Of a DNA stretch of 64,000 bases, positions 61,055-64,000 are shown piece after piece. Source of the stretch: a virus (Duplodnaviria; Caudoviricetes); IMG/VR virus record IMGVR_UViG_3300020049_014895, positions 10,482-74,481 of that record; one strand, written 5' to 3'. The notes beneath the pieces were generated by a model. That model searched no databases. It worked only from the letters and a program-made list of their open reading frames with translations, and was not told the origin of the DNA. The position numbers and the translations under genes were made by a program. Numbering within the stretch: position 1 is the stretch's first letter; every line of letters starts with the position of its first letter.

Positions 61055-61314
61055 ACGCAAAAGATAAAGCAAAAGAAATCATTAAAAAATACAGACCATT
61101 AGTAAAATTGTGGGATTGCTATTTTGACGAGCCAAGAAAAGAAGAAGAAATTATTGCCGACACGAAAAAATGTGGCATTATTCAAGTTGATGCAATCATT
61201 CAAGCTTTAGAGATTACCACCGGACATTGCGAGTTACGAACACTCGATTACCATGAAGTTCAAAAAGATTTCCAATATTGGAATGATGTTAAAAATGAAA
61301 TTGAAAAACTATAA
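61051..61314 (+). CDS. Hypothetical protein, paralogue of 4060-4356
   Basis: Shared N- and C-terminal patterns. Confidence 0.7.
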   Translation: MNAKDKAKEIIKKYRPLVKLWDCYFDEPRKEEEIIADTKKCGIIQVDAIIQALEITTGHCELRTLDYHEVQKDFQYWNDVKNEIEKL

Positions 61315-61664
61315 TGGACTACACACAAGCCATCATCGATTCTCTTCCAGGCAAGACCCTCGAAAAGAAATACGAAGCACTACAAAAGCTTCTCAAGAAG
61401 AAAGAGAAAGTAAAACAGATTTCTTTCGAGGAATCTCCTATCTTTGACAAGCGAGTATTCCGCGAAAAATTCATCGATTGGCCAACAGCGAAATGTAAAT
61501 TCTATTACGAATCCGCAGACGCCTACTCCTCTCAAGAAAACAAATACATCAATTGGGAGAAAGCAATTCGCAACTGGGCTTCTCGAGATGATGCGCAAAA
61601 GAAATACACTTGGCCGGCAGACGTTGCAGGCAATAATAATCAAATTAAAGGATTAGCATTATAA
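61314..61664 (+). CDS. Hypothetical protein resembling a replication-initiator C-terminal domain
   Basis: FYYESADAYSSQENKYINWEKAIRNWASRD. Confidence 0.55.
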   Translation: MDYTQAIIDSLPGKTLEKKYEALQKLLKKKEKVKQISFEESPIFDKRVFREKFIDWPTAKCKFYYESADAYSSQENKYINWEKAIRNWASRDDAQKKYTWPADVAGNNNQIKGLAL

Positions 61665-61791
61665 CGTTATCAGGCTTTGTGTCTGTTGCGACCAAAAATA
61701 AAACAAATTTTAATTTAAATACTAAATATTACAGATTATGACTAAACATTCAGAAAACACCGAGCCAAGCAATAGCACAAAACCTGTGTTA
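61662..61791. mobile_element. attC-like recombination hairpin A
   Basis: TAAC-gttat-CAGGCTTTGTGTCTGTTGC ... GCAATAGCACAAAACCTG-t-GTTA. Confidence 0.7.
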
Positions 61792-62178
61792 CAAGCAGTT
61801 TTTTTGGTAACTCGTGGAGATTATTCAGATTATAGAGTTTGTGCGGTTTTTACAGATAAAAAACTTGCTCAAAAATATATTGATTCATTTGAAAAACCAT
61901 ACGATGAATTTAGAATTGAAAACTATAAGTTAAATCCATTTTCTAAAGAATTAAAGGCTGATTATAAACCTTATTTTTTGAGAATGAAAAAAGATGGAAC
62001 TTGTACAGAAATTTATGTGAAAGATTCATCTTATGGTTTTGAAAGCGAAGATTTAGATATTGGATTTGATATTCATAAAGATATGTATTTATCAGTTTTT
62101 GCCAAAGATGAAAAACACGCTATAAAAATAGCAAATGAAAAACGAGTTCAATTAATTGCAGAAAATCGTTGGAAGTAA
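61738..62178 (+). CDS. Cassette 1 cargo: hypothetical protein
   Basis: Starts inside hairpin A; bounded by GTTACAAGCAGTTT / AAATTGCTTGTAAC. Confidence 0.75.
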   Translation: MTKHSENTEPSNSTKPVLQAVFLVTRGDYSDYRVCAVFTDKKLAQKYIDSFEKPYDEFRIENYKLNPFSKELKADYKPYFLRMKKDGTCTEIYVKDSSYGFESEDLDIGFDIHKDMYLSVFAKDEKHAIKIANEKRVQLIAENRWK

Positions 62179-62197
62179 CGTTCTGTAAAATTGCTTG

Positions 62198-62322
62198 TAA
62201 CGTTTTGGGGCTTTACGCAGGGTGGGATTTTAGCACCGAAGCTCATAAAATGTACAAATGTTCGGACTTGCACAAATGCTTATTAAATGCACTTCTGCCC
62301 ACCTTGCGTAAAACCCTTGTTA
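62198..62322. mobile_element. attC-like recombination hairpin B
   Basis: TAAC-gttttg-GGGCTTTACGCAGGGTGGG ... CCCACCTTGCGTAAAACCC-tt-GTTA. Confidence 0.75.
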
Positions 62323-62376
62323 CCTGCCGTTTTTTTCTCGGTAGTTCTTTAAAATGTATAATTAAAAGTAGAAATA

Positions 62377-63021
62377 ATGATTGAAATTAAAAATGTAGAT
62401 TGTCTTGAAGGAATAAAAGAATTGGCTGATGGTTCGGTAGATGTTGTAATAACAGACCCACCATATTCAACGCCTGTAATTACTTCATTTGGTAGAAAAA
62501 AGTTTAAAAACCTTGCTGATTTATCTGTGCAAGAATTTTACTTTAAAGCAATTAAAAAGGAACTTGAAAGAGTTTTAAAGCCTGATGGTAGAGTTTTCTT
62601 TTTCTGTGACGACAAATTTTATCCAATACTTTATTCTGTGTTTTACGAATGGTTGAATTTAGGTTTAATTGTTTGGGATAAAGGCAAAATAGGAATGGGA
62701 AGACCAATAAGAAAACAACACGAACTTATATTTTATGCAAATCAAGGTAGTGCAGAATTTCAAAAGTTTGGCGAAATAACACATATACCATCTGTATTAA
62801 AAGTAAAACACGACACTAATAAAATTCACGGTGCTCAGAAACCTGTTGAACTTATTGAACATTTAATAAACGGATTTTCAAAAGAAGGCGATTTGATAAT
62901 TGATTTGTTTGGCGGTAGTGGTTCAACTGGCAAGGCTTGTCAAAACCTAAATAGAAACTTTGTCGGCTTTGAATTAAACACAGAAATAGCAAATGCAAGT
63001 TCGGAACGTCTGTCGCTCTAA
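62377..63021 (+). CDS. Cassette 2 cargo: beta-class N4-C/N6-A DNA methyltransferase
   Basis: DVVITDPPY, HGAQKPVELI and IDLFGGSGST motifs. Confidence 0.92.
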   Translation: MIEIKNVDCLEGIKELADGSVDVVITDPPYSTPVITSFGRKKFKNLADLSVQEFYFKAIKKELERVLKPDGRVFFFCDDKFYPILYSVFYEWLNLGLIVWDKGKIGMGRPIRKQHELIFYANQGSAEFQKFGEITHIPSVLKVKHDTNKIHGAQKPVELIEHLINGFSKEGDLIIDLFGGSGSTGKACQNLNRNFVGFELNTEIANASSERLSL

Positions 63022-63030
63022 AATGGCAGG

Positions 63031-63152
63031 TAACGTTTCCGCTATGAGTAGTGGCGGTTTTGAACTACTCACTTTAAATAACAGATAATGACAATAGAAA
63101 GCACAAACGACAATAATACCACTGCACCCGCCATTACTTATAGCGAGTGTTA
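63031..63152. mobile_element. attC-like recombination hairpin C
   Basis: TAAC-gtttc-CGCTATGAGTAGTGGCGG ... CCGCCATTACTTATAGCG-agt-GTTA. Confidence 0.75.
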
Positions 63153-63870
63153 TGCACAGGTTTTTTTAGGCGATTGCTTGGAACTATATAAAAATATAGA
63201 ACCCAAAAGCATTGATTTAATACTAACCGATTTACCTTATGGAACAACCGCCTGTAAATGGGATACAATAATACCATTTGACAAACTTTGGGAGATGGTA
63301 AACTACTTACTAAAACCAAACGGAGCTTTTATAACAACAGCTTCACAACCTTTTACAAGTGCATTGGTAATGAGCAACCCGAAACAATACAGTTACAACT
63401 GGGTTTGGAATAAAAGATACCCTGCCAATTATCCACTTGCAAAAAAGCAACCAATGAAAATACATGAGGATATTTTGGTGTTTGGTGGCAATTATAACCC
63501 TATAATGGTAGAACGAGATAAACCAATTAAAAAAGGTGCAAATAAAGGAGCAACCGTTTTTAAAGGCGGGTTAGAAAGGGAAGATTACAAAGGTAAAATT
63601 TATACACATAAATACCCTGAAAGTATAATTACATACCCAACAAGACAAGAAGAAACATTTGCACCGACACAAAAACCAGTAGCATTATTTGAATACTTAC
63701 TAAAAACATACAGCAATGAAGGGATGACAATATTTGACCCTTGTATGGGGTCGGGAACTACTGGAGTAGCTTGTAAAAATCTAAACCGAAACTTTATCGG
63801 AATAGAGAAAGACGAGAACTATTTCAAAATAGCAGAACAGCGAATAAATGCACGGACGCTGTTTCCTTAA
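63088..63870 (+). CDS. Cassette 3 cargo: beta-class N4-C/N6-A DNA methyltransferase
   Basis: DLILTDLPYG, PTQKPVAL and FDPCMGSGTTG motifs; N-terminal ~27 aa encoded by hairpin C. Confidence 0.92.
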   Translation: MTIESTNDNNTTAPAITYSECYAQVFLGDCLELYKNIEPKSIDLILTDLPYGTTACKWDTIIPFDKLWEMVNYLLKPNGAFITTASQPFTSALVMSNPKQYSYNWVWNKRYPANYPLAKKQPMKIHEDILVFGGNYNPIMVERDKPIKKGANKGATVFKGGLEREDYKGKIYTHKYPESIITYPTRQEETFAPTQKPVALFEYLLKTYSNEGMTIFDPCMGSGTTGVACKNLNRNFIGIEKDENYFKIAEQRINARTLFP

Positions 63871-63879
63871 ACTTGTGCA

Positions 63880-64000
63880 TAACGTTTTGCCACTTTGCGT
63901 AGTGGCAGATTAGATGCACAAATTTTCAAACAAACACAGATGTTAAATAGAATTACTAACCTTGAAGTTACCACCAAACCTGCCATTACGCAAAATGGCT
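63880..64000. mobile_element. attC-like recombination hairpin D, right end cut by the window edge
   Basis: TAAC-gtttt-GCCACTTTGCGTAGTGGCAG ... CTGCCATTACGCAAAATGGC-t; an ORF (MLNRITNLEVTTKPAITQNG...) starts at 63940 inside the loop. Confidence 0.7.

Follow-up and report, generated by a model that had tools for sequence, protein, structure and literature searches.

Recombinase-associated acquired interbacterial defence clusters (rAID-1) have been described in Bacteroidales as a Xer-like tyrosine recombinase together with an array of co-directional, short, low-GC genes (Ross et al. 2019, 10.1101/471110; PMC12247911). Their intergenic repeats were considered "reminiscent of integrons" and the clusters are widespread across the phylum (10.1101/471110; PMC12247911); one criterion is a recombinase with identity of 44% or more to B. 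fragilis BF9343_RS08045 (10.1101/471110). Hairpins, flank pairing, crossover points and the route of gene acquisition were not described in this rAID-1 literature (10.1101/471110; PMC12247911). CALINs were reported in virulent phages, notably P12002L with its two methylase genes, and two attC sites of P12002L were identified by integron tools and tested with IntI1 (Qi et al. 2023; PMC9892861). Literature searches on phage integrons and on the recombination mechanism of rAID turned up nothing beyond Qi et al. 2023 and the publications on rAID.

The window studied here is the whole 64,000-nt stretch of phage DNA analysed, and at its right end four hairpin elements of ~125 bp each (A to D) alternate with single genes. 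This phage of Flavobacterium-type bacteria carries swappable single-gene cassettes, mainly of DNA methylases, and we interpret the stretch, with a probability of roughly 0.8, as a phage-borne array of mobile gene cassettes belonging to the Bacteroidota integron-like (rAID-type) family. The features concerned are as follows.

61314-61664, + strand: orf116, the final backbone gene ahead of the array (116 aa, no Pfam match)
61662-61791, + strand: hairpin site A, the first of the array (left core 61662-61665, right core GTTA 61788-61791; model score 119.7 bits)
61666-62201, + strand: cassette unit 1, measured between successive left cores (hairpin A, then the 5' flank at 61792-61802, the DUF7336 gene, the 3' flank at 62187-62197 and TAAC)
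61738-62178, + strand: DUF7336 gene (Pfam)
62198-62322, + strand: hairpin site B (DNA fold -24.7 kcal/mol, z -3.1; model score 146 bits)
62202-63034, + strand: cassette unit 2 (hairpin B and an N6_N4 DNA methylase gene; complementary flanks)
62377-63021, + strand: N6_N4 DNA methylase gene of unit 2 (Pfam)
63031-63152, + strand: hairpin site C (model score 135.9 bits)
63035-63883, + strand: cassette unit 3 (hairpin C and an N6_N4 DNA methylase gene; complementary flanks)
63088-63870, + strand: N6_N4 DNA methylase gene of unit 3 (Pfam)
63880-64000, + strand: hairpin site D, with the contig ending exactly before the right core (model score 81.3 bits, 3' truncated)

All four elements fit the form given in the original prediction: the left core TAAC and G(T/G)T lead into an 18-20 nt arm, which is separated by a ~70-nt loop from its complementary arm, and T and GTTA follow. 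The asymmetric spacer claimed next to the core was recovered as a 4-nt bulge in all three complete elements. The TAA stop codon of orf116 forms part of the left core of site A, and this site matches the hairpin that comes first in Flavobacterium phage snork9-1 at 91% identity, which is confined to the core-to-core span. The fourth base of the core covaries (CAAC pairs with GTTG), and the invariant core is therefore AAC/GTT. Element D is incomplete at the contig end. The GTTA expected past base 64000 lies beyond the window's own bases, and it directly follows the counterpart of that base in all five other viral contigs with a D-type hairpin. When the contig end is joined to the contig start, no GTTA appears in the first 3 nt, and terminal redundancy was not found either; the contig ends were thus treated as an assembly break and not as a true junction. 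A search of Rfam returned just two sub-threshold microRNA matches, which were taken as noise.

The ends of each cassette form inverted repeats of 15 nt, each 93% complementary in the repeat search (61788-61802/62187-62201, 62319-62333/63020-63034 and 63149-63163/63869-63883). The right flank of each hairpin was said to complement the left flank of the next element and not its own, and this proved correct in 3/3 cases in the window. At related loci, at least 9 of 11 positions were paired in 49 of 79 consecutive element pairs, a level reached in 1/105 comparisons of an element with its own flank and in 1.5% of random pairs. The arms also covary across homologues, as the prediction required. Among the four window copies alone, 11 of 24 hairpin pairs were compensated; in 88 distinct hairpin copies, 94.8% of cells were paired compared with 63.9% in shuffles, changes on both sides numbered 593 cells compared with 179, and sliding the partner by one to three columns reduced pairing to 34-51%. 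These figures lean toward structure because the 88-copy alignment was fitted to the model. Near-invariant G.T pairs occur at the core (83/88) and in the middle of the arm (75/88), along with a C.A mismatch and the 4-nt bulge on the 5' side. Fixed mismatches are present on both strands, each strand having its own, so that the sequence does not reveal which strand folds; no attC-like single bulged bases were identified.

A search of Bacteroidota phage and host genomes for such arrays had been suggested, and the same elements recur across 33 related viral contigs, among cultured Flavobacterium phages, in Polaribacter phage P12002L (at least nine elements of this hairpin family with cross-complementary flanks, by pattern scan) and, on the host side, as matches to the hairpin model in 53 of 151 sampled Bacteroidota genomes. 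Related phages vary in gene content and order as predicted, with precise gain, loss and reordering at the cores. Two viral contigs (L011 and L013), whose flanks are identical at 100% and 98.8%, share 100%-identical blocks in differing order, and every block runs from left core to left core. Four cultured Flavobacterium phages (snork9-1, hemulen6-1, filifjonk9-1 and mumin6-1) differ at the array start by a precise cassette of 476 bp, and one junction occurs among them in three alternative states. On the right-hand side of shared genes, 10/10 breaks coincided with the next left core; on the left-hand side, four coincided with the left core, one with the right core and five were mixed. Cassette reshuffling at the left core is thereby established, as far as comparison of genomes can do so. 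The original prediction that the cassette is opened within the right GTT core upon insertion was not upheld: the block boundaries speak against a crossover at the right GTT core and place the exchange at the left core, after AAC. The hairpin would consequently move together with its downstream gene, and the circle junction now predicted is the cassette 3' flank and TAAC joined to the G that opens its own hairpin, in place of the junction sequence first proposed.

Two cases resemble replacement of the hairpin only, with both cores as bounds, and these are not explained by a single-core crossover alone. One further locus (L003) contains divergent hairpins and an "empty" cassette, which were missed by the hairpin model and seen on reading the sequence. 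Close relatives of the backbone of this phage (orf116 and the helicase) were searched for among the viral contigs and none was found, and therefore no polymorphism has been demonstrated at the window's own site.

The alternative that survives best, which we regard as unlikely, is that the hairpins are regulatory or processing elements of transcripts (translation start modules or RNase sites) and that ordinary homologous recombination shuffles the cassettes, as was proposed for PeSLs, the promoter-stem-loop cassettes that are the precedent in T4-type phages (PMC2839356, PMC4122927). Of 96 distinct elements, roughly half have their start codon inside the hairpin. In the window, an ATG sits in the loop of site A (61738) and in that of site D (63940), and the loop ATG of site C (63088) is the sole usable start of the unit 3 methylase; the unit 2 methylase has its own ATG, 3' of hairpin B. 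One hairpin forms in-frame fusions to unrelated genes, a single hairpin-plus-leader "shell" carries three unrelated ORFs, and the G.T pairs of the sense strand would be G.U in RNA. The hairpins would fold in mRNA too, and a role at the RNA level is therefore not excluded. However, homologous recombination does not explain why the two ends of a unit complement one another rather than the ends of the unit's own hairpin, nor why breaks gather at one core of 3-4 nt and not inside the conserved arms. In phage arrays, the cargo lies on the strand of the hairpin model in 61/61 clear cases, so that the hairpin precedes the gene, whereas in bacterial arrays the same hairpins are antisense to the cargo, which is thus inverted in phages relative to bacteria. 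Translation start cannot therefore be the primary function. The arrays, moreover, come with a conserved docking site and a recombinase.

It had been stated that no tyrosine recombinase is present in the window. This is true of the window itself; the genome, however, encodes one at C1:3600-4433, 6 kb ahead of the window start, next to a fifth hairpin element with its cassette and a conserved docking site. The co-occurring recombinase that was looked for was thus found both in the same genome, where it is the only gene with PF00589, and next to arrays in related contigs, where the arrays lie directly upstream of recombinase homologues and always on the same strand. The putative docking site, TAAC followed by TAYTATATRTAA, is conserved 50-80 nt upstream of the recombinase start at 15 phage loci, between the last TAAC and the recombinase gene, and it occurs also in a Flavobacterium chromosome. 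Between the window array itself and the recombinase lie the contig break and at least 2.7 kb of other genes. Many array-bearing phages, among them snork9-1 and three complete 36-kb genomes, lack a tyrosine recombinase, and a neighbouring phage enzyme is therefore not strictly required.

The recombinase contains SAM_4 and Phage_integrase domains. Its top NCBIfam matches were XerA, integron integrase and XerC/D, every one of them under its cut-off; the integron-integrase models gave 165.6 bits (TIGR02249, cut-off 265) and 93.7 bits (PRK15417, cut-off 435). Both the HxxR motif and the C-terminal H...Y of the enzyme line up with those of XerA and VchIntIA. In the comparison with VchIntIA (2a3v), residues 17-172 corresponded to 16-175 and residues 197-274 to 243-319, leaving 24 aa where VchIntIA has 67, i.e., the IntI-specific insertion is missing.

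These results also bear on the possibility that the array is a fragment of a classical integron (CALIN), with true attC sites made for and moved by IntI. The AAC/GTT cores, the imperfect hairpin and the cassette logic are all consistent with it, and P12002L, in which Qi et al. 2023 (PMC9892861) called their two attC sites, carries the same element family. Against this, the linked recombinases lack the IntI insertion (24 vs 67 aa) and fall below the integron-integrase cut-offs, the outer stem is of 15 bp rather than 7, the core context differs from GTTRRRY and the cargo is inverted. Of six sites, moreover, P12002L_attC1, the published one that is like this family, alone lacked verified IntI1 junctions. 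We therefore consider a CALIN very improbable. Least probable of all is an IS200/IS605-like single-strand transposon, or some other element guided by a hairpin, moved by an HUH enzyme with insertion 3' of a tetranucleotide (3' of TTAC in IS608): the units do insert exactly 3' of TAAC, start with a hairpin and show strand polarity, but each has one hairpin and not two subterminal ones, a tyrosine recombinase and docking site consistently adjoin the arrays, and no HUH transposase was noticed in or beside them by Pfam on cassette and neighbouring genes or in GenBank annotation, which was not a dedicated search.

The reading as mobile rAID-type cassettes extends to the hosts. In Bacteroidota chromosomes, Flavobacterium included, the arrays reach ~30 units and adjoin a Xer-like tyrosine recombinase homologue and the same docking motif, and the alignment of phage and bacterial hairpins continues through the loop. 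Judged from these alignments, the system is not phage-specific; its hairpins belong to the same family as the Xer-recombinase-linked chromosomal arrays of Bacteroidota (rAID-type).

The composition of the cargo is foreign. The shift noted in codon third positions from the helicase to the cargo was evident, with a third-position C frequency of 0.23-0.28 in the helicase and orf116 and of 0.06-0.16 in the cargo genes. A third methylase gene adjoins the recombinase, outside the window. The DNA methylase cargo most likely serves evasion of host restriction, and the methylase content of the LMO6/LMO9 Flavobacterium phages has already been tied to plating efficiency (PMC7077304).

In the mechanism we propose, the mobile unit would extend from one AAC core to the next and take in a hairpin of ~120 nt with a short 5' flank, a single gene and a 3' flank that terminates in TAAC. 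Excision as a circle would bring the 3' flank of the unit to its own hairpin, and the two flanks could then pair as an outer stem of 15-16 bp, giving one long imperfect stem with a 4-nt bulge. Calculated folds for the circle junction were ~10 kcal/mol better than for the site in array context in all three window cassettes (unit 1, -21.6 vs -11.1; unit 2, -35.6 vs -25.2; unit 3, -24.2 vs -14.7 kcal/mol), and the mean difference in 61 other cassettes was -6.6 kcal/mol. A tyrosine recombinase of the Xer/IntI clade is inferred to recognise the folded site, to cleave the gene-sense strand after AAC and to exchange this site with a second one, either a further hairpin site or the conserved docking site. 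The phage itself could encode this enzyme (C1:3600-4433); in phages without one, it could be the array-linked homologue of the host. By analogy with integron attC and with CTX-phage/XerCD, probably one strand is exchanged, with replication finishing the event. The start codon, together with some 17-20 leader codons, may often come from the loop of the phage hairpin. That the site folds in vivo, which strand serves, that single strands are exchanged and which enzyme acts are inferred only, as the analysis had no excised circles, junction reads or recombination assay to draw on. Of the folded single-stranded, site-specific capture system originally predicted for a Bacteroidota phage with two methylases, the mobile cassettes and attC-like sites have held, and single-strand recombination is an inference.

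The chances seem to us evenly divided on whether phage and host chromosomal arrays form one cassette exchange network, in which Flavobacteriia phages, with their own or a host recombinase, capture and reshuffle anti-defence genes at shared folded hairpins, and the turned cargo lets the loop provide a start codon for any ORF. If so, this would be a gene-capture platform active during phage infection, with a recombinase lacking the domain considered essential to integron chemistry. Gene capture of the integron type is taken to need the IntI-specific domain and, to our knowledge, is nearly absent from Bacteroidota. The locus gives the anatomy of the site to the single base, from the AAC core and an outer stem of 15 bp specific to each cassette to the fixed mismatches and the docking site, and natural reshuffling is visible among cultured, tractable phages (the LMO6/LMO9 Flavobacterium phages). 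It therefore offers an experimental system for the recombination of folded DNA by a Xer-like enzyme without the IntI insertion, the assembly of anti-restriction gene sets by phages and the trade of cassettes between hosts and phages.

Among known systems, PeSLs are direct repeats thought to work via homologous recombination, and we know of no cassette-specific complementary ends, AAC/GTT cores, linked recombinase or docking site in them. As in the phage arrays, these repeated intergenic stem-loops of T4-type phages flank variable genes in plastic regions and accompany shuffling (PMC2839356, PMC4122927). Judged by their flanks, which are specific to the cassette or "shell" and complementary across the unit, the arrays do not, however, fit the PeSL definition as composite terminator-promoter direct repeats without cassette-specific ends. 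In the CTX-phage, XerCD integrates the phage at a folded single-stranded attP that mimics a duplex, and one strand pair is exchanged. A Xer-family enzyme acts there on a single-stranded DNA hairpin, as is inferred for the array phages, and the cassette 3' flanks (...GCnnnTAA) presumably resemble Xer-binding arms ending in ...CATAA. The CTX-phage, however, integrates as a whole at dif, and a multi-cassette platform is absent.

The array differs from integrons in the missing IntI-specific insertion, in the outer stem of 15-16 bp with a fixed T.G or T.N mismatch, in the one-sided 4-nt bulge and fixed mismatches that seem to stand in for the known extrahelical bases, which set strand choice, in the inverted cargo, which is read through the right arm and does not follow the order of cargo then site, and in the lack of a divergent integrase/Pc promoter layout. 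It shares with them cassettes of one gene each between imperfect hairpins whose cores are AAC/GTT, complementarity of the outer boxes across the cassette and not within the site in array context, and unrelated genes sharing one type of site, as with the Vibrio VCRs. A putative attI-like docking site beside the recombinase gene also agrees in position and conservation, its function being inferred. In attC, the bottom strand is cleaved after AA and before C on the 5' side of the folded strand, and the polarity of the phage sites relative to the docking site fits this.

The phages of Qi et al. 2023 (PMC9892861) share the host class and the methylase cargo; arrays, a dedicated Xer-like recombinase, left-core crossover, cargo polarity and the link to host arrays were not part of that study. 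Compared with rAID-1, the phage recombinase is downstream of the cargo and not 5' of it, the cargo is inverted relative to the polarity of the sites, and the enzyme, of 277 aa, lacks the N-terminal extension of the 346-aa bacterial recombinase, to which it is 38-40% identical. The orphan immunity gene criterion is likewise not met, the phage cargo being DUF7336, DNA methylases and small phage genes. Co-directionality, low GC and repeats are present in the phage, yet the array is upstream of the recombinase. The bacterial arrays of the hairpin family fit the rAID-1 layout criterion (at least two co-directional, low-GC genes downstream of a recombinase, with repetitive intergenic sequences), and these chromosomal arrays, found with the phage hairpin model, share the rAID-1 layout and have hairpins that align with those of the phage.

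An integron-like array of gene cassettes had been predicted at the end of the window. This reading was supported in the present analysis after three corrections, which concern where the crossover lies, whether the genome encodes a recombinase (it does) and the assignment to the Bacteroidota rAID type (recombinase-associated acquired interbacterial defence clusters), the last resting on the layout of the arrays. The array appears to work like an integron, with folding in vivo, the strand used, the exchange of single strands and the responsible enzyme all being inferred. The window is the final 64 kb of a linear source record of 74,481 bp, estimated by CheckV to be 100% complete, and the genome as a whole (coordinates prefixed C1) contains the following features:

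61662-61791, hairpin element A
62198-62322, hairpin element B
63031-63152, hairpin element C
63880-64000, hairpin element D, truncated by the contig end
C1:2681-2833, outside the window, a fifth element followed by a third methylase cassette
C1:3600-4433, tyrosine recombinase gene directly after the fifth-element cassette (277 aa; SAM_4 and Phage_integrase domains)

Reading of 61662-64000 bore out the predicted form and positions of the four elements, each of which opens with TAAC (the left core) and G(T/G)T, followed by a spacer of 4 nt; an arm of 18-20 nt and its complement then enclose a ~70-nt loop, and T plus GTTA (the right core) close the element. The cross-complementary cassette ends of the original prediction were recovered by a repeat search of the window as three pairs of 15-nt inverted repeats, 93% complementary. 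Between the elements lie genes for one DUF7336 protein and two N6_N4 DNA methylases, the latter being the two methyltransferases expected as cargo, and the predicted shift in codon third positions was also found (C 0.06-0.16 in the cargo versus 0.23-0.28 in the adjacent helicase and orf116). The irregularities of the stem formed by the flanks are fixed, the 3' flank before TAAC reading nnnnTTGCnnn and the 5' flank after GTTA nnnGCNGnnnn, so that almost all cassettes have a conserved T.G wobble and, beside it, a T.N mismatch in one and the same place, as between window positions 62187-62197 and 61792-61802. At the contig start, outside the window (C1:150-200), a terminator-like hairpin ending in ...GCGGGTAAC and followed by T8 has the look of a cassette 3' flank with its core attached, and may mark the distal end of the array in the window or be no more than a terminator.

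In the fifth-element cassette the 3' end pairs at 14 of 15 positions with the bases after the hairpin. The adjoining recombinase is the only PF00589 gene of the whole genome, so that the absence of a tyrosine recombinase noted for the window does not extend to the genome; homologues also adjoin related arrays. Its best score was to archaeal XerA, followed by integron integrase at about the level of XerC/D, all under the curated cut-offs. Against VchIntIA, the integron integrase reference, two stretches were aligned, with 24 residues in place of the 67 of IntI, and the IntI-specific insertion is therefore absent. Since this defining feature of the integrase is lacking, the array is not a classical integron. 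At 15 loci the TAAC of the last cassette is followed by the conserved TAYTATATRTAA, a putative docking site 50-80 nt before the recombinase start. In one related genome (G002, C1:2131-64031) elements flank the recombinase on both sides, with one more far off; several arrays thus occur per phage genome, there and likewise in the window's genome.

The search of phages and hosts with a covariance model, proposed originally, was productive on both sides. The model, built from four copies (24 pairs, 11 with compensatory changes), yielded 109 copies from 33 viral contigs, which had been retrieved through homology to the recombinase, and from snork9-1, a cultured phage of Flavobacterium. At least 53 of 151 sampled Bacteroidota genomes were also hit, a lower bound because only 20 candidates were scored per genome. 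Among 88 distinct copies, in an alignment fitted to the model, 94.8% of the paired cells were complementary, versus 63.9% when shuffled and 34-51% when the partner was slid. Where the left core is CAAC the right core is GTTG, so the fourth base covaries and only AAC/GTT is invariant. Of 79 cases, 49 showed pairing of the flank after GTTA with the one that precedes the next TAAC, compared with 1 of 105 for the flank of the same element and 1.5% for random pairs; most failures lie across gaps in which an element had probably been missed. In the viral contigs every copy lies on the strand of the recombinase, and the arrays stand directly upstream of it (in a complete 76-kb genome, the last of ten elements ends 160 nt before the gene). 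Of 96 distinct elements, roughly half have their first in-frame ATG within the loop, and for the second methylase of the window the loop ATG is the sole start available. Geneless 'empty' cassettes, in which a right-core flank and a complementary left-core flank are ~10 nt apart, were seen beside the docking site or between hairpins (L008:~1745-1775, identical in L010; L003:9200-9236).

Hairpins of the D type were found in five other viral contigs, and GTTA stood at the exact window-end position in all five, so that the GTTA expected after base 64000 was confirmed indirectly. No tyrosine recombinase was found in the genomes with this hairpin (29-39 kb) or in snork9-1. One 'shell', consisting of the D-type hairpin, the 5' flank, a leader of ~35 nt and the 3' flank, holds three unrelated ORFs in three phages:

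L053, minus strand, D-type shell
L054:11129-11547, D-type shell
L056:1267-1802, D-type shell

The cassette frame thus seems to stay constant while the gene within it is replaced, which bears on the origin of cassettes, and the single shell is reminiscent of chromosomal integrons with their uniform sites.

Mobility was indicated by comparisons of close relatives. In two loci with 100% and 98.8% identical flanks (L011 and L013), 100%-identical blocks are reordered, each spanning one left core to the next. Four cultured Flavobacterium phages, with 11-14 elements apiece, are distinguished by a 476-bp unit inserted precisely behind the first TAAC, and one junction occurs in three alternative states. 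In a window-based breakpoint test, all ten breaks to the right of shared genes fell at the next left core, and those to the left fell at the left core in four cases, at the right core in one and were mixed in five, every mixed case involving one short hairpin; the pair counts are not independent and represent an estimated ~8 distinct events. From these positions the hairpin moves with its downstream gene and the exchange takes place at the left AAC core, instead of the GTT of the original prediction. When the 3' flank of a cassette was joined to its own hairpin, as at a circle junction, the window cassettes were predicted to fold about 10 kcal/mol better than in the array (-21.6/-11.1, -35.6/-25.2 and -24.2/-14.7 kcal/mol), and 61 other cassettes gained a mean of -6.6 kcal/mol. 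Homologous recombination between the repeats fails to explain this gain, which is to be expected if, as in integrons, excision as a circle is what creates the functional site. Left-core crossover alone cannot explain two apparent exchanges of hairpins only, one with the same hairpin between different neighbour genes and the other with different hairpins between the same genes (window 61662-61792 vs L002:4001-4131; L002:6168-6290 vs L044:6408-6530). Hairpin A and the first hairpin of snork9-1 share 91% identity from core to core only, the latter being fused in frame to an unrelated gene.

The bacterial matches include long chromosomal arrays:

L066-L071 (chromosomes G132, G021, G019 and G088), up to ~30 hairpin-bounded cassettes beside a 346-aa Xer-like recombinase

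Two chromosomes, one of them of Flavobacterium, carry ~28 and ~30 elements in 37 kb and 20 kb. At the TAAC end both arrays have an Xer-like recombinase with 38-40% identity to the phage enzyme, also without the IntI-type insertion, and the docking motif of the phages, which was read for one array. The cargo mostly has no Pfam match. Relative to the hairpin model it lies on the opposite strand in 31 bacterial cases and on the same strand in seven, whereas in phages all 61 are on the same strand; the recombinase gene is flipped in phages too. Because of this inversion, the hairpin precedes the gene in phages. Phage and bacterial hairpins align across the loop (alignment A6, phage E, B and D and five bacterial). 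Nor is the loop arbitrary in sequence: both groups carry in it, twice per copy, a conserved motif of ~13 nt, GCACAAATGTTCA, that contains ATG and might act as an accessory site for binding or, on one of the strands, as a promoter.

No publication on such arrays with an Xer-like recombinase in phages was found in our literature search. Variable methylases of the cultured Flavobacterium phages have been linked to plating efficiency, without mention of hairpins or cassettes (PMC7077304). Integron components in phages were reported by Qi et al. (2023; PMC9892861), including a two-site CALIN (attC array fragment) with methylases in Polaribacter phage P12002L, whose attC1 is the one site without verified IntI1 junctions. 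In P12002L a pattern scan revealed at least nine elements of the hairpin family with cross-complementary flanks, matched weakly by the covariance model, and the published attC1 oligo resembles a short member of the family. The rAID-1 clusters of Bacteroidales comprise a recombinase followed by short, low-GC genes that share one direction and are separated by repetitive sequences, and were called reminiscent of integrons (Ross et al., 10.1101/471110); in a 2025 paper the rAID definition was still restricted to these layout features. The chromosomal arrays found with the phage hairpin model match the rAID-1 layout, a likeness of layout only, the B. fragilis reference sequence not having been compared.
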